From Escherichia coli (GTDB taxonomy: Bacteria > Pseudomonadota > Gammaproteobacteria > Enterobacterales > Enterobacteriaceae), in NCBI RefSeq assembly GCF_044647545.1, contig NZ_CP172818.1: 64,000 bases of DNA. One strand, given 5' to 3'. A program made the position numbers and the translations under genes. Below the pieces are notes generated by a model that was given only the letters and a program-made list of their open reading frames with translations, ran no database searches and was not told where the DNA came from. Below, in pieces: positions 140-57,100 of this stretch (position 1 is its first letter; every line of letters begins with the position of its first letter).

Positions 140-913
140 TTATTTCAGCGATCCCTTAAGGAACTGTTGCAGACGAGGGCTTTGCGGGTTGCCAAATAAC
201 TGCTCCGGCGCGCCTTCTTCCTCTATTTTCCCCTGATGGAGAAAAATGACGTGAGTAGAAACATGGCGAGCAAAGCCCATTTCGTGGGTCACCACCACCA
301 TGGTTTTCCCCTCTTCTGCCAGTTGCTGCATAATACGCAACACTTCGCCTACCAGTTCAGGATCGAGCGCCGAGGTAGGTTCATCAAACAGTAAAACTTC
401 CGGTTCCATTGCCAGCGCCCTTGCGATGGAAACACGCTGTTGCTGACCGCCGGAAAGATGCACCGGATATTTCCCCTGCGCACGTTCGTCTATCCCGACT
501 TTCGCCAGATACTTCACCGCCCGCTCGCGCGCTTCCTGCTTGCTCAGGCCCAACACCTGAATCGGCGCTTCCATGACGTTTTCCAGCACCGTCATATGGC
601 TCCAGAGATTGAAGTGCTGGAATACCATCGTCAGGCGTGTGCGCAGTAAGCGCAGCTGATTTTTATCGGCGACTTTGAGTTGACCATCTTTGTCGCGCAC
701 CAGATTGATCGTCTGGCCATTGACCACGATCGATCCTTCGCTCGGTTTTTCGAGGAAGTTAATGCAGCGCAGAAAGGTACTTTTCCCCGATCCCGACGAT
801 CCGATGATACTTATGACATCTCCGGCATTCGCTTGCAATGAGACCCCTTTCAGCACTTCGTGTTCGCCGTAGCGTTTGTGCAAATCGATAACGTTTAATT
901 TATTCTCGGACAT
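140..913 (-). CDS. hisP: Histidine/lysine-arginine-ornithine ABC transporter ATP-binding protein
   Basis: 257-aa ORF with Walker A (GSSGSGKST), ABC signature (LSGGQQQR) and Walker B; first of hisJQMP order. Confidence 0.92.
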
Positions 914-920
914 CGTATTC

Positions 921-1637
921 TCAGTGCGTTGAAGAAGGTTTCACATGCTGCAACCAGCGTTTTTCAGCTCTGCGAAAGAGGCTGATCAGGACATAAGAGA
1001 TGATTAAATAGAGCACCGCGGCAATGCCGAAGGCGGTAAAAGGTTGATATGTGGCGGCGTTAATATCGCGGGCAATTTTCAGCAGATCCGGCACCGTGGC
1101 AGTAAATGCCAGCGCAGTAGAGTGCAGCATCAGGATCACTTCGTTGCTGTATGCCGGTAACGCAATACGCAGCGCAGAAGGCAAAATAATGCAGCGATAC
1201 ATTTTAAAGGTCGAGAAGCCATAGGCTCTGGCGGCTTCAATTTCCCCATGCGGCACTGAACGGATTGCCCCGGCAAAAATCTCGGTAGTGTAAGCGCAGG
1301 TGTTAAGCGTCAGCGCCAGCACGGTACAGTTCAGACCACTGCGAAAAAAGGCGTTAAGGAACTCGGTTCCCTTAACAATCTCCAGCGTGTACATGCCGGA
1401 ATAGAACACCAGCAACTGAACATACAGCGGCGTACCGCGAAAAATATAGGTAAATAACCAGATTGGAAACTGGATGTATTTATTACTTGAGACGCGACCA
1501 ATCGCCAGAAACAGCGCCAGAACTCCGCCTATCACTACCGACAAAATCAGCAGCCACAGGGTGATCGCCACGCCAGTAAAGCGATAACCGTCAGTCCACA
1601 GCAGTGGTTTCCAGTATTCATGTAAGATTTCGATCAC
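921..1637 (-). CDS. hisM: Histidine ABC transporter permease
   Basis: 238-aa multi-TM ORF adjacent to hisP; overlaps hisQ by 4 bp. Confidence 0.9.
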
Positions 1638-2320
1638 AGGTCAGCCCTCTTCACACCCACGGAGTAGCGGCGTTCAAGGAACAGCAGCACACCATTGGAA
1701 ACGGTGGTGAAAACAAGATAAATCACGCCACAGACGATAGCGAAATAGAACGGTTCCCAGGTACTTTTGCCTGCCAGCTGCGTGGCTTTGACCACATCTT
1801 CCAGGCCGAGTAACGAAACCAGTGCGGTAGATTTGAGGATCACCTGCCAGTTGTTGCCAATGCCTGGCAGGGCGTAACGCATCATCGCCGGAAACATGAT
1901 CCGCCGAAACACTTGCCCACGAGTAAAACCGAACGCCGTCGCCGCCTCTATATGTCCTTTCGGCACTGCCATAAAAGCACCACGGAACGTTTCGGTAAAA
2001 TAAGCACCGTAGATAAAACCGAGAGTAATAATACCAGCGACCATCGGATCGATATCAATCTGCCCGACGCCCATCGCCTCCGTCACCGTGTTTAGTGCAA
2101 TCTGCAAACCGTAGAAAATTAGCAGCATCAACACCAAGTCCGGCACGCCTCGAATCAGCGTGGTGTACCCTTCGAAAATCAGCCCCGAAAGCCGATTTTG
2201 CGAGAGCTTACCGCCAGCGCCAATTAAACCGATGATTACAGCGAGCACTACAGAGCTGATAGCCAGCTCCAGCGTGACGAGCGCACCCTGTAAAATAACA
2301 CCTGAAAACCCATACAACAT
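1634..2320 (-). CDS. hisQ: Histidine ABC transporter permease
   Basis: 228-aa multi-TM permease ORF; operon position. Confidence 0.9.
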   Translation of the reverse strand: MLYGFSGVILQGALVTLELAISSVVLAVIIGLIGAGGKLSQNRLSGLIFEGYTTLIRGVPDLVLMLLIFYGLQIALNTVTEAMGVGQIDIDPMVAGIITLGFIYGAYFTETFRGAFMAVPKGHIEAATAFGFTRGQVFRRIMFPAMMRYALPGIGNNWQVILKSTALVSLLGLEDVVKATQLAGKSTWEPFYFAIVCGVIYLVFTTVSNGVLLFLERRYSVGVKRADL

Positions 2321-2409
2321 GCTGCCTGTCCTGTCGTGTGTGGTGAATTACCGCCTCTTGTCTCCCTCCGGTTACCCGAAGGGAGCGGGCTTTCTTTCAC
2401 CGATGGCGA

Positions 2410-3192
2410 TTAACCACCATAAACATCAAAATCGAAGTACTTTTTCGCTAATTTCTCGTAAGTACCGTCAGCGCGCATTTCGGCAAAGGCTTTGTTCAGT
2501 GCCTCGCGCAGTTCGTTATCTTCTTTACGCAGGCCCATGCCGGTCCCTACGCCAAACAGTTTTTCATCTTTAACAGACGGGCCACCGAATTTGTAATCTT
2601 TACCGACGGGTTGTTTGAGGAAACCTTCGCTGGCTGCGACCTCATCCTGGAACGCGGCATCAATACGTCCGGCAGTCAGGTCAGAATAAATATTGTCCTG
2701 CCCCTGATAAGAAACGATTTCAATGCCTTTTGGTGCCCAGTGTTCGTTACCGAACGTCTCCTGGGTGGTGCCCTGCAATACGCCTACCCGTTTGCCTTTC
2801 AGCGATTCGACTGTCGGCTGAATGTCGGAATTTTTCGCCACCACCAGACGAGAATCGGCAGCGTACAGTTTGTCGGTGAAGGCTATTTCTTGCTGACGTT
2901 TTTCCGTAATGGAAAGCGATGACATGATGGCGTCAATCTTCTTCGCTTTTAAGGACGGGATTAACGCATCCAGTGGGTTTTCGACAAACGTACATTGCGT
3001 ATTGATGCGTTTGCACAACTCCTTCGCCAGATCGATATCGAAGCCAACCAGTTCACCTTGTGAATTTTTTGATTCAAATGGCGCATAGGTCGGATCGGTA
3101 CCGATGCGGATGTTTTGCGGAATCGCAGCAAACGCCGCAGTTGCGCTGGAGAAGGCCAGAACCAGAGAGAGCGATAGCACCAGTTTTTTCAT
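2410..3192 (-). CDS. hisJ: Histidine-binding periplasmic protein
   Basis: 260-aa ORF with signal peptide; strongly similar to the adjacent argT product. Confidence 0.9.
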
Positions 3193-3337
3193 AATGTCCT
3201 CAACTGACAGTCTTTTTATAGGGAATATTTACAGGTTTGTTACACTTATCGTGCCATAAAATTGACCATCAAGGCAAAATATCCCGCCCCGTTAGACGTA
3301 TTATTTTTCATTAAAAATGCTTAAGTATGCATTTCAA

Positions 3338-3354
3338 TGCACCACGATAGTGCA
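3338..3354. promoter_or_regulatory. NtrC-like palindrome TGCACCAcgaTAGTGCA upstream of hisJ
   Basis: Close match to the NtrC consensus TGCACCA-N3-TGGTGCA; a second half-site-like GTGCACCATG lies about 10 bp downstream. Confidence 0.35.
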
Positions 3355-3412
3355 ACAAACCTGGCGTGCACCATGATGATCATTCCATCAGGTACAGCTT
3401 CCCTGCGACGTA

Positions 3413-4195
3413 TCAGTCACCGTAGACATTAAAGTCGAAATACTTTTTCGCCATCTTGTCGTAGGTGCCGTCCTGACGCAGCTCGTTAAGCGCCTTATTG
3501 AAGGCCGCCGTCAGTTCAGCATCATCTTTACGCAGCCCTACACCGGTGCCGTCACCGAAGTATTTTTTGTCTTTCACTGATGGGCCTGCAAAGGCGAAAT
3601 CTTTACCGGCGGGTTGCTTAAGGAAACCTTCGCTGGCAGCAACCTCATCTTGTAACGCAGCATCCAGGCGTCCTGCAGCCAGATCGGAATAGACCAAATC
3701 CTGGTTAGCATAGGCCACCACATCGACCCCCTTACTGCGCCAGTTATCATTGGCATACGCTTCCTGGGTTGATCCCTGCAGCACACCAACATGTTTACCT
3801 TTCAGTGAATCCAGCGTTGGCTGAATCGGTGAACCTTTGGCAGCAATCAGACGAGAGTCTGCGGCGTACAGCTTGTCGGAGAAAGCAATCTCCTGCTGAC
3901 GTTTATCGGTAATGGAAAGCGACGAAATAATGGCGTCGATTTTTTTCGCTTTCAGTGAGGGGATCAGCGCGTCAAAGTCACTGGCAACCCAGGTACATTT
4001 CACCTGCATCCGTTTGCACATCTCGTTACCGAGATCGATATCAAAGCCAACAAAGTCACCTTTGGCATCTTTCGATGAGAACGGCGCATAGGTGGTATCA
4101 GTTCCGATACGTACCGTCTCCGGTAGCGCCGCATAGCTGGAAGCCGCTGCGGAGAGACCGACTAACAAAGACAGAGCGAGAATCGACTTCTTCAT
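3413..4195 (-). CDS. argT: Lysine/arginine/ornithine-binding periplasmic protein
   Basis: 260-aa ORF with signal peptide; paralog of hisJ immediately upstream. Confidence 0.9.
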
Positions 4196-4263
4196 ACATA
4201 ACCCTCAAGTGAAAATGGCTTTTTTATGTTGTGTATTGTGTTGTGTGTTTGCAGGCTCTTTCA

Positions 4264-4279
4264 TGCAGGTCTTATGCCA
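4264..4279 (-). promoter_or_regulatory. Candidate sigma-54 promoter (TGGCAT-N5-CTGCA) upstream of argT
   Basis: Reverse complement reads tggcataagacctgca, matching the -24 GG / -12 GC spacing, about 70 bp upstream of the argT start. Confidence 0.55.
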
Positions 4280-4460
4280 TCTTGACGACAACAGTAACAT
4301 TCAACGTTAAATATGTTAATAAGACGTTGCATTATTGTCCTGAAGTTGAAGATAGCAGGTATAGCGGTTGAATCGCAGCGTTTCGATTGAATGGCAGAAA
4401 CAAAATGTCGAGGATTTGATCGCGGTTGCAAAATTGCCCTGAAACAGGGCAACAGCGGAG

Positions 4461-5030
4461 TTATGCGCCCTGCCAGCGGGCAAAGAGATCTTCAGGAAGC
4501 GTTATGGCGAATTGATCGAGTACACGGTTAACCGTCTGATTTATCACATCATCAAGGGATTGCGGGCGATGATAAAACGCCGGAACGGGAGGCATAATCA
4601 CCGCACCGATTTCTGCTGCCTGAGTCATTAAACGCAGATGGCCTAAGTGCAATGGTGTTTCACGTACGCAGAGCACCAACGGGCGACGCTCTTTCAGCAC
4701 AACATCTGCCGCACGGGTCAGTAAGCCATCAGTATAGCTATGGACAATGCCGGACAGGGTTTTGATTGAACAGGGTAAAATCACCATCCCCAGTGTCTGG
4801 AAAGAACCGGAAGAAATGCTGGCAGCAATATCGCGCGCATCGTGCGTCACATCGGCTAATGCCTGCACTTCGCGCAGGGAAAAATCCGTTTCGAGGGATA
4901 AGGTCTGGCGCGCGGCCTGGCTCATCACCAAATGCGTTTCAACATCTGCGACATCGCGCAGAACCTGTAATAAGCGCACGCCATAAATCGCGCCGCTGGC
5001 ACCGCTGATGCCTACAATGAGTCGTTTCAT
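4461..5030 (-). CDS. ubiX: Flavin prenyltransferase UbiX
   Basis: 189-aa ORF, flavoprotein fold (MKRLIVGISGASGAIYG). Confidence 0.9.
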   Translation of the reverse strand: MKRLIVGISGASGAIYGVRLLQVLRDVADVETHLVMSQAARQTLSLETDFSLREVQALADVTHDARDIAASISSGSFQTLGMVILPCSIKTLSGIVHSYTDGLLTRAADVVLKERRPLVLCVRETPLHLGHLRLMTQAAEIGAVIMPPVPAFYHRPQSLDDVINQTVNRVLDQFAITLPEDLFARWQGA

Positions 5031-10450: not shown

Positions 10451-11110
10451 TTATTTTGCGGCGCGTGCCGCAGCGCGTTTGTGGCGAATAAATTCGAAAA
10501 CACCTGGCAATATTGAAACAAAAATAATGCCAACAATCATCAGTTTAAGGTTGCTCTGAATGAAGGGGAGCGTTCCGAAGAAATAACCCGCGTAGGTAAA
10601 AATCAGTACCCATAGCAACGCGCCGATGACGTTAAAAGCGGCGAAATGACGGTACGACATGTGGCCCATTCCCGCAACAAACGGCGCGAACGTTCTGACG
10701 ATCGGCACAAAACGGGCGAGAATAATCGTTTTGCCGCCATGTTTCTCATAAAACTGATGGGTTTTGTCGAGATAACTGCGACGAAAGATTTTCGAATCCG
10801 GATTACTGAACAGTTTGTCACCAAATAACCGTCCAATGGTGTAGTTCACCGCGTCACCCACAATCGCGGCGATCAGCATCAGCACCACCATCATATGGAC
10901 GTTGAGATCGTTGGTTTCCAGTGATGCCAACGCACCGGCAACAAACAGCAATGAATCACCCGGTAAAAACGGCGTTACCACCAGACCGGTTTCACAGAAC
11001 AAAATTAAGAACAAAATGGCATAAACCCAGACGCCATACTCCGCGACCAGTTCTGCCAGATGCACGTCAATGTGCAGGATAAAATCGATGAGGAAATAAA
11101 TCAGGTCCAT
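10451..11110 (-). CDS. dedA: DedA-family inner membrane protein
   Basis: 219-aa multi-TM ORF. Confidence 0.85.
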
Positions 11111-54134: not shown

Positions 54135-57100
54135 ATGAAGTTTTTACCCTATATTTTTCTTCTCTGTTGTGGTCTTTGGTCGACCATAAGTTTCGCAGAC
54201 GGAGATTACATCGAATATCGTGGCATCAGTAGTAACAACCGTGTCACACTTGATCCACTACGTCTGAGCAACAAGGAATTACGTTGGCTCGCGAGCAAAA
54301 AAAATCTTGTGATTGCAGTACACAAGTCCCAAACAGCTACGTTGTTGCATACCGATTCGCAGCAACGGATTCGTGGTATTAATGCTGATTATTTAAATCT
54401 TTTAAAAAGAGCGTTAAATATCAAATTAACACTCCGGGAATACGCAGATCATCAAAAAGCAATGGACGCGCTGGAAGACGGTGAAGTTGATATAGTGTTA
54501 TCACATTTAGTTGCTTCGCCGCCTCTTAATGATGACATTGCTGCAACTAATCCTCTGATAATTACCTTTCCTGCGTTGGTCACTACCCTTCACGATTCAA
54601 TGCGACCGCTTACCTCATCAAAACCAGTAAATATTGCTCGAGTAGCAAATTATCCCCCAGACGAGGTAATTCATCAATCATTTCCAAAAGCAACAATTAT
54701 CTCTTTTACAAATTTATATCAGGCATTAGCATCCGTCTCAGCCGGACAGAATGATTACTTTATTGGTAGTAACATCATTACCAGCAGTATGATTTCCCGT
54801 TATTTTACTCACTCCTTAAATGTAGTGAAGTATTATAACTCACCGCGTCAATATAACTTTTTATTAACCAGAAAAGATTCAATCGTTCTTAATGAAGTAC
54901 TCAATCGATTTGTTGATGCTTTAACAAATGAAGTTCGCTATGAAGTATCACAAAATTGGCTTGATACAGGAAACCTGGCCTTTCTGAACAAACCATTAGA
55001 ACTCACTGAACATGAAAAACAGTGGATTAAGCAGCATCCCGATTTAAAGGTGCTAGAAAATCCTTACTCGCCACCCTATTCTATGACAGATGAAACTGGC
55101 TCAGTTCGGGGCGTGATGGGTGATATTCTTAATATTATTACCTTGCAAACAGGTTTAAATTTTTCTCCGATCACCGTTTCACACAATATTCATGCTGGGA
55201 CACAGCTTAACCCCGGTGGATGGGATATATTGCCCGCCGCTATTTATAGTGAAGATCGAGAAAATAATGTTTCATTTGCTGAAGCTTTCATAACAACGCC
55301 TTACGTTTTTGTCATGCAAAAAGCGCCTGACAGTGAACAAACATTAAAAAAAGGAATGAAAGTTGCCATTCCATATTATTATGAGCTTCATTCGCAATTA
55401 AAAGAGATGTATCCGGAGGTAGAGTGGATAAAAGTCGATAACGCCAGCGCTGCATTTCACAAGGTCAAGGAAGGTGAACTTGATGCTCTGGTCGCGACAC
55501 AGTTAAATTCGCGTTACATGATCGACCATTACTATCCTAATGAACTTTATCATTTTCTTATTCCCGGCGTTCAGAATGCATCACTTTCGTTCGCTTTTCC
55601 TCGCGGAGAACCGGAACTTAAGGATATTATTAATAAAGCACTGAATGCAATTCCCCCAAGCGAAGTTCTGCGCCTGACGGAAAAATGGATTAAAATGCCC
55701 AATGTGACCATTGACACATGGGACCTCTATAGCGAGCAATTTTATATTGTCACGACATTATCCGTTTTATTAGTTGGCAGTAGCCTTTTATGGGGATTCT
55801 ACCTGTTACGCTCAGTTCGTCGTCGTAAAGTCATTCAGGGTGATTTAGAAAACCAAATATCATTCCGAAAAGCACTCTCGGATTCCTTACCGAATCCAAC
55901 TTATGTTGTAAACTGGCAAGGTAATGTCATTAGTCATAATAGTGCTTTTGAACATTATTTCACTGCGGATTACTACAAAAATGCAATGTTACCATTAGAA
56001 AACAGTGACTCACCCTTTAAAGATGTTTTTTCTAATGCGCATGAAGTCACAGCAGAAACGAAAGAAAATCGAACAATATACACACAGGTATTTGAAATTG
56101 ATAATGGCATCGAGAAAAGATGCATTAATCACTGGCATACATTATGCAATCTGCCAGCAAGCGAACATGCTGTTTATATTTGTGGTTGGCAAGATATTAC
56201 CGAGACGCGTGATTTAATTCATGCACTCGAAGTAGAGAGAAATAAAGCGATCAATGCAACTGTCGCAAAAAGTCAGTTTCTGGCAACAATGAGTCACGAA
56301 ATAAGAACACCAATAAGCTCCATTATGGGCTTCCTGGAACTTCTGTCGGGTTCTGGTCTTAGCAAGGAGCAACGGGTGGAGGCGATTTCACTTGCCTACG
56401 CCACCGGACAATCACTCCTCGGCTTAATTGGTGAAATCCTTGATGTCGACAAAATTGAGTCGGGTAACTATCAACTTCAACCACAATGGGTCGATATCCC
56501 TACTTTAGTCCAGAACACTTGTCACTCTTTCGGTGCGATTGCTGCAAGCAAATCCATCGCATTAAGTTGCAGCAGTACGTTTCCTGAACGCTACCTGGTT
56601 AAGATCGACCCTCAGGCGTTTAAGCAGGTCTTATCTAATTTACTGAGTAATGCTCTCAAATTTACTACCGAGGGAGCAGTAAAAATTACGACCTCCCTGG
56701 GTCACATTGATGACAACCACGCTGTTATCAAAATGACGATTATGGATTCTGGAAGTGGATTATCGCAGGAAGAACAACAACAACTGTTTAAACGCTATAG
56801 CCAAACAAGTGCAGGTCGTCAGCAAACAGGTTCTGGTTTAGGCTTAATGATCTGCAAAGAATTAATAAAAAACATGCAGGGCGATTTGTCATTAGAAAGT
56901 CATCCAGGCATAGGAACGATATTTACGATCACAATCCCGGTAGAAATTACCCAACAAGTGGCGGCTATAGAGACAAAAGCAGAACAACCTATCACACTAC
57001 CTGAAAAGTTGAGCATATTAATCGCGGATGATCATCCGACCAACAGGCTATTACTCAAACGCCAGCTAAATCTATTAGGATATGATGTTGATGAAGCCAC

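Follow-up and report, generated by a model that had tools for sequence, protein, structure and literature searches.

Transcriptional control of the argT–hisJQMP locus of Escherichia coli: a sigma-54 promoter at argT and an NtrC site before hisJ

The window analysed here, a stretch of 64,000 nucleotides of Escherichia coli contig NZ_CP172818.1, contains the well-studied argT–hisJQMP cluster for basic-amino-acid and histidine uptake, with two paralogous periplasmic binding proteins and one HisQMP2 transporter. The sigma-54 promoter of argT and the NtrC palindrome before hisJ, both proposed by an earlier sequence-only reading of the same DNA, are real and already documented; the finding is correct and ordinary. 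The palindrome, at positions 3338..3354, is a high-affinity NtrC site occupied in nitrogen-starved cells, and it has a putative weaker partner at 3367..3383. The hisJ gene itself has a sigma-70 promoter with ArgR control, and we consider it reasonably probable that the NtrC sites form the enhancer of a weak, overlapping sigma-54-type element, and that nitrogen control reaches hisJQMP through this weak promoter together with read-through from argT.

The impact on annotation is small: a published sigma-54 promoter and NtrC site have been re-discovered from raw sequence at a textbook nitrogen-regulated transport locus. To our knowledge, NtrC activates only sigma-54 promoters, and a small but real puzzle is left, namely high NtrC occupancy before a gene whose promoter is described as sigma-70. 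What comparison across genomes shows (a position-conserved -24/-12, lineage-specific decay of the -12, and phased NtrC sites retained regardless) makes this puzzle testable by mutation.

The argT–hisJQMP locus

All five genes lie on the minus strand: argT (3413..4195), followed in the order J-Q-M-P by hisJ (2410..3192), hisQ (1634..2320), hisM (921..1637) and hisP (140..913), in concordance with the RefSeq annotation. Each of the five subunits exceeds the curated NCBIfam profile cut-off for its family. The periplasmic lysine/arginine/ornithine-binding protein ArgT scores 584 bits against an equivalog cut-off of 440, the periplasmic histidine-binding protein HisJ 599 against 459, the permease subunits HisQ and HisM 479 against 319 and 465 against 306, and HisP, the ATP-binding subunit common to HisJ and ArgT, 578 against an equivalog cut-off of 466. 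The two binding proteins, both 260 residues long, are 68% identical over 259 residues, and a single hisQ/hisM/hisP set follows them, which agrees with the earlier claim of two similar 260-residue proteins sharing one permease and ATPase; published work likewise has one transporter serving both HisJ and ArgT. Databases and papers describe argT-hisJQMP as a single unit.

Conservation was assessed in 78 Enterobacteriaceae loci with their spacers and in a separate alignment of 23 genera. The tandem argT-hisJ arrangement is found in all 78 of the related loci with upstream sequence. By sequence comparison, the only difference between the two intergenic regions of the present strain and those of K-12 MG1655 is a SNP at 3404, which touches none of the motifs. 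A promoter duplicated together with the gene was considered and rejected: local alignment of the regions upstream of argT and hisJ gave no significant score in E. coli (z 1.7), and of six loci tested only two reached significance (z 3.8 and 7.0). The hisJ-hisQ spacer (2321..2409, minus strand) holds a strong RNA hairpin with a 10-bp stem and a GUAA loop (minimum free energy -33.2 kcal/mol, z -4.2; none of 200 shuffles folds equally well), which may be a REP-type mRNA-stabilising element like that of the Salmonella his transport operon.

The argT sigma-54 promoter and the NtrC palindrome

The argT element, ATGGCATAAGACCTGCA (4264..4280, minus strand), stands 68 nt before the argT ATG on the gene strand and has its start site at about 4253. 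It has GG (4277-4278) and GC (4265-4266) dinucleotides 10 nt apart, in a TGGCAC-N5-TTGCA-like sequence. A plain search of the window for TGGCAC-N5-TTGCA with two mismatches found 19 matches, where 27.7 were expected; such a simple pattern, without enrichment, is by itself no evidence, and a ChIP-based weight matrix was used instead. This matrix rests on 41 E. coli sites validated by ChIP, the argT site not among them; in it the argT element scores 14.7 bits and ranks third of about 128,000 window positions, the first rank falling to an independent ChIP site, IS29 in evgS. Sigma-54 ChIP-seq in E. coli mapped the identical sequence as site OS22, whose start site is 58 nt from the ATG; ChIP-chip found an identical 18-mer bound in Salmonella, where argT has a sigma-54-dependent transcript, and RpoN holoenzyme gives a gSELEX peak in the argT/ubiX spacer. 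The literature describes argT as NtrC-activated, and an overlapping sigma-70 promoter is also present. The element recurs in 78 of 78 related loci, with scores of 12.2-18.9, at 46-141 nt (mostly 55-90) before the argT ATG. The proposed sigma-54 element at argT is thus upheld by matrix scoring, by conservation and by published binding data. The control region is probably limited upstream by a hairpin after ubiX, GUUGCCCUG-UUU-CAGGGCAAU followed by UUUUG (4433..4453, minus strand; fold -13 to -17 kcal/mol), the probable ubiX terminator.

The palindrome in the argT-hisJ spacer, TGCACCACGATAGTGCA (3338..3354, a dyad assigned to neither strand), is 17 bp long and differs at one position from the published NtrC consensus TGCACCA-N3-TGGTGCA. 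No other sequence in the window comes within one mismatch of this consensus, and the expected number of such matches is 0.01. It maps to 2424956-2424972 of K-12 (NC_000913.2), a coordinate transfer checked three ways, and thereby falls within the NtrC ChIP-seq peak 2424941-2425021, which is assigned to hisJQMP, is enriched 23.7-fold and has a resolution of about 80-100 bp. A separate, weaker NtrC peak at argT (5.4-fold) was added by eye in that study, which lists both the argT and the hisJQMP units as induced by nitrogen starvation; among the 93 targets of an in vitro NtrC gSELEX, the argT-hisJ spacer does not appear. The second, weaker NtrC-like site (3367..3383, likewise unstranded), a candidate partner for NtrC oligomerisation, has a perfect half-site TGCACCA at 3367-3373 and a degenerate distal half with four mismatches; its centre is 29 bp from that of the strong site, and it aligns with a conserved ..GGTGCA block of other genera. 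The palindrome noticed from sequence therefore matches the known NtrC regulon. The accompanying suggestion of nitrogen control of both genes stands in so far as NtrC peaks and starvation induction have been published for both, and is incomplete for hisJ, where the reported promoter is of the sigma-70 type.

An inverted repeat 59 nt past the argT stop codon might also have arisen by chance, or serve argT as an RNA hairpin or terminator, without being a protein-binding site at all. We regard this as practically excluded, given the expectation of 0.01 matches per window, the position inside the NtrC peak, and the folding results: the arms are not paired to one another in the minimum-energy fold, the region's folding is no better than that of shuffles (z -1.6), and inspection of fold and sequence after argT found neither a terminator-like fold nor a T-run. 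Across genera, moreover, the half-sites are conserved and the central bases variable, which is the pattern of a protein site and not of a stem.

The hisJ promoter and the role of its NtrC sites

Published work assigns to hisJ a sigma-70 promoter under weak repression by ArgR, which binds upstream of the -35 at a distance of 17 bp and is said to work through DNA conformation, not occlusion. No published hisJ transcription start site was found in the open literature. From these reports and the sequence we infer that the sigma-70 elements are a -35 hexamer TTGCCT (3272..3277, minus strand), in a TTTGCC block conserved across genera, and, 18 bp after it, an extended -10 TGgCACGAT (3248..3256, minus strand). 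A published promoter-up deletion of 1 nt at -78 is located in this 18-bp spacer, and shortening it to 17 would fit such an effect. As read from the sequence, two ARG-box-like 18-mers, AATGCATACTTAAGCATT and AATGAAAAATAATACGTC (3295..3333, minus strand), lie 3 bp apart in a 21-bp register, the second of them 17 bp upstream of TTGCCT; TGCATA.TTAAGC within this region is nearly invariant in the 23 genera. This sigma-70 promoter with its ArgR boxes is absent from the sequence-only reading.

The putative -10 overlaps a sigma-54-like -24/-12 element, ATGGCACGATAAGTGTA (3241..3257, minus strand), also overlooked by the earlier reader and the natural target of the palindrome. The element scores 12.6 bits, sixth of about 128,000 positions and below 95% of the validated training sites. 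It has the GG (3254-3255), and GT instead of GC at 3242-3243, so that it departs from GG-N10-GC in the GC at -12, the most strongly conserved feature of sigma-54 promoters; the pspA and pspG promoters also have GT at -12 and yet are bound by sigma-54. The centre of the palindrome is 91 bp upstream of the GG, a suitable distance for an enhancer. No IHF site with at most one mismatch occurs in either intergenic region.

Related genomes bear on how these elements should be read. The position of the hisJ-proximal element is kept, with TGGCA in 73 of the 78 Enterobacteriaceae spacers and TGGCAC invariant in the 23-genus alignment; a function as sigma-70 extended -10 could also account for this invariance. 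Of the 78 spacers, 39 have TGC within the -12 pentamer and a further 16 have GC there, and in a Citrobacter species the element is canonical, ATGGCACGATAACTGCA. The -12 has decayed in Escherichia (GTGTA against consensus-type CTGCA), Salmonella, Enterobacter and Klebsiella pneumoniae. NtrC-like sites with at most two mismatches number 59 in the 78 spacers, against 0.03 in shuffles, and their offsets from the GG fall into clusters at -140, -111 and -89/-91; the spacer motifs thus have homologues at fixed offsets in other genera. In Enterobacter and Leclercia the -12 is destroyed, with scores of -0.1 to 11, and an NtrC-like site at -110 is nevertheless retained, which argues for a role other than driving a hisJ sigma-54 promoter.

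On the reading that we prefer, the NtrC sites would act as enhancer for the sigma-54-type element at 3241-3257, in a glnAp2-like geometry in which the start predicted for sigma-54 lies about 116 and 145 bp downstream of the two site centres, and ArgR-bound DNA would occupy the place that IHF takes in other sigma-54 promoters. The arrangement looks ancestral in the Enterobacteriaceae, given the consensus-type -12 in many genera. Because the Escherichia -12 has decayed from CTGCA to GTGTA, direct initiation by NtrC and sigma-54 at hisJ is probably weak, and nitrogen control of hisJQMP in E. coli would combine this weak promoter with read-through from the argT promoter, expected because there is no terminator between the genes.

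A starker possibility, which we consider rather unlikely, is that the sites are left over from an ancestral NtrC/sigma-54 hisJ promoter, so that NtrC binds in E. coli and activates nothing at hisJ, with the nitrogen response arising only through argT read-through and the ArgR/sigma-70 promoter. In keeping with this, sigma-54 occupancy at hisJ is unreported: the main tables and supplements of the published E. coli ChIP-seq have no peak there, and the RpoN gSELEX lists give the argT/ubiX spacer and not the hisJ-proximal element. The Salmonella counterpart, TGGCACGATAGTCGCATC, is footnoted as predicted and, on earlier evidence, probably an inactive promoter. The decay of the -12 in four lineages, the description of hisJ as sigma-70 dependent, and the treatment of argT-hisJQMP as one unit point the same way. 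Against it, in genera with highly diverged flanks, including those without a usable -12, the offset of the strong site is fixed and its mismatches number 0-2. The 171-bp control core in E. coli is conserved above the neighbouring coding DNA (5107 of 5421 genomes share at least 99% identity over it, against mostly 95-99% over the 2.2 kb around it). Finally, an Escherichia-specific deletion of about 22 bp, which moves the strong site from -111 to -91, amounts to two helical turns.

It is conceivable, and we offer it only tentatively, that the hisJ control region is an evolutionary palimpsest, an ancestral astC-like NtrC-ArgR-sigma-54 promoter with three phased NtrC sites. In Escherichia, Salmonella, Enterobacter and some Klebsiella, a sigma-70 promoter would since have been written over it, taking the old -24 TGGCAC for its extended -10. 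NtrC sites held at fixed offsets despite a destroyed -12 would then imply a second, as yet undescribed job. The most interesting candidate would be that of a downstream enhancer, 0.9 kb from the argT sigma-54 promoter, whose consensus upstream site Escherichia has lost; a second would be antagonism of ArgR.

The first of these jobs can be put as a proposal of its own: NtrC bound in the spacer would loop back about 0.93 kb and activate the argT promoter from downstream, compensating in Escherichia for the want of a good upstream NtrC site. NtrC enhancers act over kilobase distances and from downstream, as is familiar from glnAp2. In E. coli no NtrC half-site with at most one mismatch occurs within 325 bp upstream of argT, and a segment of about 30 bp that follows the ubiX stop in Klebsiella, Enterobacter, Pseudocitrobacter and Pluralibacter, where it bears an NtrC-like palindrome, is missing from Escherichia. 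The disparity between the 23.7-fold peak in the spacer and the manually added 5.4-fold peak at argT, and the persistence of spacer sites in genera with a destroyed hisJ -12, would also be accommodated. We nevertheless judge the proposal improbable. A published 198-bp plasmid fragment without the spacer (4254-4451, from the hairpin to just past the -12) drives the highest expression among the sigma-54 promoters tested, and an argTp-lacZ fusion at the lac locus still responds to loss of GlnK; both results are to be read with the overlapping sigma-70 promoter of argT in mind, and either may be independent of NtrC. Enterobacter soli and others keep a good upstream site as well as the spacer site, which means that the two are not complementary, and across genera no clean pattern of complementarity was found between them.

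For the second job, NtrC at 3338-3354, which abuts ARG box 1 (3316-3333) at a distance of 5 bp, would compete with ArgR or distort its complex, so that starvation relieves repression of the sigma-70 hisJ promoter without sigma-54. This would account for retention of the site where the -12 is lost, and suits an ArgR repression that is weak and said to be conformational. We hold it to be very improbable, since in most genera the strong site is some 20 bp further from the ARG boxes, and weak repression limits what relief could gain. We also know of no precedent for NtrC as an anti-repressor.

Comparison with known systems

The NtrC sites at glnAp2 lie at -140 and -108. The hisJ region resembles that promoter in having two NtrC sites, one of them weaker and putative, which are spaced by about three helical turns and lie roughly 110-145 bp before a -24/-12, and in the dyad TGCACCA-N3-TGGTGCA. 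It differs in that hisJ has a single strong NtrC site, a -12 without GC and unreported sigma-54 occupancy, and in that its sigma-70 promoter overlaps the sigma-54 element, whereas glnAp1 lies upstream.

With astCADBE the hisJ region shares the order of elements, NtrC sites followed by ArgR sites and then the -24/-12, and it has no IHF consensus between enhancer and promoter. ArgR has a documented accessory function at the sigma-54 promoter of ast and, by analogy, may be a co-activator at the putative hisJ sigma-54 promoter; in contrast, its reported role at hisJ is that of a weak repressor of the sigma-70 promoter.

Overlapping sigma-70/sigma-54 promoters, as at glmY/glmZ and at argT, chaC, mdfA and patA, likewise place the sigma-54 element within the sigma-70 footprint, where competition is possible; the overlap at hisJ, unlike these, is deduced from sequence only. 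In RNA-seq without sigma-54, argT and hisJ both rise 4- to 6-fold, and for hisJ either read-through from argT or an indirect effect could lie behind this.

The closest comparison is the same locus in other bacteria, namely the argTr and dhuA promoters of Salmonella typhimurium (Higgins and Ames; Schmitz, Nikaido and Ames 1988) and argTp and hisJp of E. coli K-12. In Salmonella the argT sigma-54 18-mer is identical, and the hisJ-proximal element beginning TGGCACGATA is present in both species; E. coli differs in having GTGTA instead of (T/C)CGCA at -12 and in lacking a 22-bp stretch of the DNA that joins the strong NtrC site to the ARG boxes. From the E. coli K-12 orthologues there is no material difference.

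The argT-hisJ locus and its counterpart in K-12

The window is a piece of the E. coli chromosome. The 2.2-kb query around argT-hisJ is present in 5425 of 5426 E. coli genomes, and is 100% identical to several complete ones. The minus strand carries hisP (140-913), hisM (921-1637), hisQ (1634-2320), hisJ (2410-3192), argT (3413-4195) and ubiX (4461-5030). All five transport proteins pass curated NCBIfam cut-offs under exactly the names HisP, HisM, HisQ, HisJ and ArgT. HisJ and ArgT, each 260 aa long, align without gaps at 68% identity, and the locus has only one permease/ATPase set, the HisQMP set known to serve both. The sequence-only reading had described tandem paralogous binding-protein genes with one such set, and because of the family names, the 68% identity and the single set, that description is correct. 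The hisJ-hisQ spacer (2321-2409, minus strand) contains a very stable hairpin with a 10-bp stem and a GUAA loop (-33.2 kcal/mol, z -4.2, with 0 of 200 shuffles as good), which is probably the REP-type element that stabilises hisJ mRNA in the Salmonella operon.

Both intergenic regions are identical to those of K-12 MG1655 but for one base, at 3404, and K-12 experiments are therefore directly applicable. Window positions convert to NC_000913.2 by adding 2,421,618, an offset checked against the position of the argT motif centre in the ChIP-seq data and against gene coordinates from an independent supplement; the current K-12 record, NC_000913.3, served for a third comparison, in which the gene lengths and the 220-bp spacer agreed. 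Past approximately 25 kb of the window, published K-12 coordinates transfer non-linearly, which suggests strain-specific insertions. The closest annotated strain has an AAA-family ATPase gene and a hypothetical gene at 25514-27515, and a hypothetical gene adjoining fadL at 41218-42465, all presumably absent from K-12.

Nitrogen-control elements at argT and in the spacer

A search of the 64-kb window with the plain sigma-54 consensus, allowing up to two mismatches, gave 19 matches vs. 27.7 expected and was uninformative; a weight matrix was therefore built instead, trained on 41 other intergenic E. coli sites validated by ChIP-seq. Its top match in the window, CTGGCATACATTATGCA at 56132-56148 on the plus strand (17.8 bits, 3' end of evgS), is the published intragenic sigma-54 ChIP-seq site IS29, which lies outside the training set, and this makes the matrix credible. 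IS29 points away from any nearby gene on the same strand. The argT element, ATGGCATAAGACCTGCA (4264-4280, minus strand, 68 nt upstream of the argT start codon, ATG), scores 14.7 bits and ranks third among approximately 128,000 window positions. It corresponds letter for letter to site OS22 in the ChIP-seq map of E. coli sigma-54, and its predicted start lies 58 nt upstream of the ATG. The identical 18-mer is bound by sigma-54 in Salmonella, whose argT is known to be under sigma-54/NtrC control; gSELEX with RpoN holoenzyme gives a peak within the argT/ubiX spacer; and the element was found in 78 of 78 related Enterobacteriaceae loci. The good -24/-12 match noticed before argT is borne out by all of these. 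Two other strong sigma-54-like matches, at 10517-10533 (minus strand, inside the dedA 3' end, 222 bp before accD) and 48653-48669 (plus strand, inside the dsdA 3' end), score 14.9 and 14.65 bits; the paper on sigma-54 ChIP-seq in E. coli names neither dedA nor dsdA in its main text.

The palindrome in the argT-hisJ spacer, TGCACCACGATAGTGCA (3338-3354), has one mismatch to the published NtrC consensus TGCACCA-N3-TGGTGCA, and is the sole match at that stringency in 64 kb, where 0.01 would be expected. A second site, 29 bp away at 3367-3383, has a perfect TGCACCA half. In K-12 (NC_000913.2) the palindrome occupies 2424956-2424972, within the NtrC ChIP-seq peak 2424941-2425021, which Brown et al. 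report as 23.7-fold and give to hisJQMP; their peak at argT is weaker (5.4-fold, a by-eye addition), and their list has both the argT and the hisJQMP units induced by nitrogen starvation. With these peaks and this induction, the proposed nitrogen control of both genes is supported and not new to the literature: the observation is real, the interpretation is right, and both are already published for this exact sequence. The palindrome was also considered as a terminator or RNA hairpin and rejected; its arms stay unpaired in the fold of lowest energy, folding of the region is no stronger than that of shuffled sequences (z -1.6), and there is no T-run after it. Judged by spacer fold and T-run, no terminator is evident between argT and hisJ.

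The hisJ promoter and the role of NtrC

The Charlier laboratory reports a sigma-70 promoter for hisJQMP, with weak repression by ArgR, which binds 17 bp upstream of its -35 element. Along the gene strand (minus), two ARG-box-like 18-mers in a 21-bp register (3295-3333) are followed, after a 17-bp spacer, by the probable -35 TTGCCT (3272-3277) and, after 18 bp more, by the probable -10 TGgCACGAT (3248-3256); no published hisJ start site was found in the open literature. In a laboratory-evolution study, a 1-nt deletion at -78 from the hisJ ATG gave higher promoter activity. This position, window 3270, falls within the 18-bp spacer of the assigned promoter. Shortening from 18 to 17 bp is a classic sigma-70 promoter signature. 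That NtrC might serve here to antagonize ArgR at the adjoining ARG box we regard as very improbable.

Overlapping the -10 is a sigma-54-like element, ATGGCACGATAAGTGTA (3241-3257, minus strand; 12.6 bits, sixth in the window), which has the -24 GG and, at -12, GT in place of GC. The palindrome centre lies 91 bp upstream. The Salmonella counterpart has already been listed as a predicted sigma-54 promoter, and a footnote there cites earlier evidence that it is inactive; for E. coli, neither ChIP-seq nor gSELEX reports a sigma-54 signal at hisJ, and the hisJ control region has no IHF consensus. The earlier claim about hisJ was right as to nitrogen control and missed both the sigma-70/ArgR promoter and the sigma-54-like element.

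High NtrC occupancy is seen in front of hisJ, a gene with a sigma-70 promoter and a sigma-54 element that looks weak. NtrC is not known to activate any but sigma-54 promoters. We lean toward a reading in which a weak hisJ sigma-54 promoter is still driven by NtrC and read-through from the argT promoter, past a spacer without evident terminator, would add to hisJQMP transcription. That the NtrC sites and the -24-like element are mere leftovers seems unlikely. In published K-12 RNA-seq data (PMC4551910 supplement), loss of sigma-54 takes argT from 127 to 550 RPKM and hisJ from 109 to 703 RPKM; at 42 C, cells that have no sigma-54 or a bypass mutant of it show argT, hisJ, hisM and hisP raised about 4- to 6-fold. 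For the argT rise, the only one they discuss, the authors' explanation is that an overlapping sigma-70 promoter is occluded by sigma-54 (PMC4551910). Such occlusion could occur at hisJ too, but read-through or an indirect effect would account for the hisJ rise equally well.

Comparison across Enterobacteriaceae

Eighty loci from different Enterobacteriaceae species were retrieved, 78 of which include the upstream region, and all 78 have the argT-hisJ tandem. An alignment of the spacer over 23 genera shows conservation of the GGTGCA halves of NtrC-like sites, TGCATA.TTAAGC (the first ARG box), TTTGCC (the hisJ -35 hexamer) and TGGCAC. The region around the hisJ -12 is variable: the pentamer contains TGC in 39 of 78 spacers (CTGCA, CTGCT, ATGCA, GTGCT, CTGCC) and GC without TGC in 16, GC is missing from the -12 position in 18, including Escherichia (GTGTA), and the TGGCA anchor was not found in 5. 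Elements of 16-18.5 bits, at or above the 16.0-bit median of validated E. coli sites, occur at hisJ in Citrobacter, Franconibacter, Kluyvera, Pseudocitrobacter, Buttiauxella and Mangrovibacter. In the last two, the inter-motif bases differ yet GG-N10-GC is retained, a pattern that points to selection for sigma-54 function in these genera.

NtrC-like sites with up to two mismatches number 59 across the 78 spacers (0.03 in shuffles), clustering at -140, -111 and -89/-91 from the GG. Escherichia lacks a segment of about 22 bp, or approximately two helical turns, at window about 3334/3335, which holds the -89 site in other genera; its absence moves the strong NtrC site from -111 to -91. A segment of approximately 30 bp immediately past the stop codon of ubiX (window about 4455-4460), with an NtrC-like site in other genera, is likewise missing. 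Both deletions, Escherichia-specific in comparison with loci L020, L027, L046, L060 and L073, are shared by E. albertii. Of 5421 E. coli genomes, 5107 have a 171-bp control core with 99% identity or more, vs. mostly 95-99% for the 2.2 kb around it.

The second deletion bears on the idea that the spacer sites act as a remote downstream enhancer of the argT promoter. In E. coli, the 325 bp preceding argT contain no recognisable NtrC half-site, the NtrC ChIP signal at argT is weak, and Enterobacter and Leclercia retain the spacer sites despite a destroyed hisJ -12; however, a plasmid-borne 198-bp argT fragment that lacks the spacer shows high activity, and loss of GlnK still affects an argTp fusion placed at lac. 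We consider the remote enhancer improbable, more so than relic sites. Upstream of the argT sigma-54 element (4290-4430, minus strand), blocks GATCAWATCCTC, CTGCTATCTT and TTATTAACAWATTTAACG are near-invariant in 23 genera and match neither the NtrC nor the IHF consensus. A hairpin 3' of ubiX (4433-4453, minus strand) looks like its terminator; in three Klebsiella/Raoultella loci (L067, L069, L073) these columns are unable to form it and instead read TGGTGCA or TAGTGCA, an NtrC-like right half-site.

Taken together, the comparative evidence indicates a putative ancestral NtrC/sigma-54 promoter for hisJ, with ArgR sites apparently occupying the position where IHF would otherwise sit. The sole residual interest is this comparative picture, of a sigma-54 promoter that would be in decay beneath a sigma-70 one while phased NtrC sites are retained. 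The two NtrC sites lie approximately 116 and 145 bp upstream of the putative hisJ sigma-54 start, a spacing much like that of the NtrC sites at glnAp2. The arrangement with ArgR sites is reminiscent of astCADBE, whose sigma-54 promoter has ArgR as an accessory factor.
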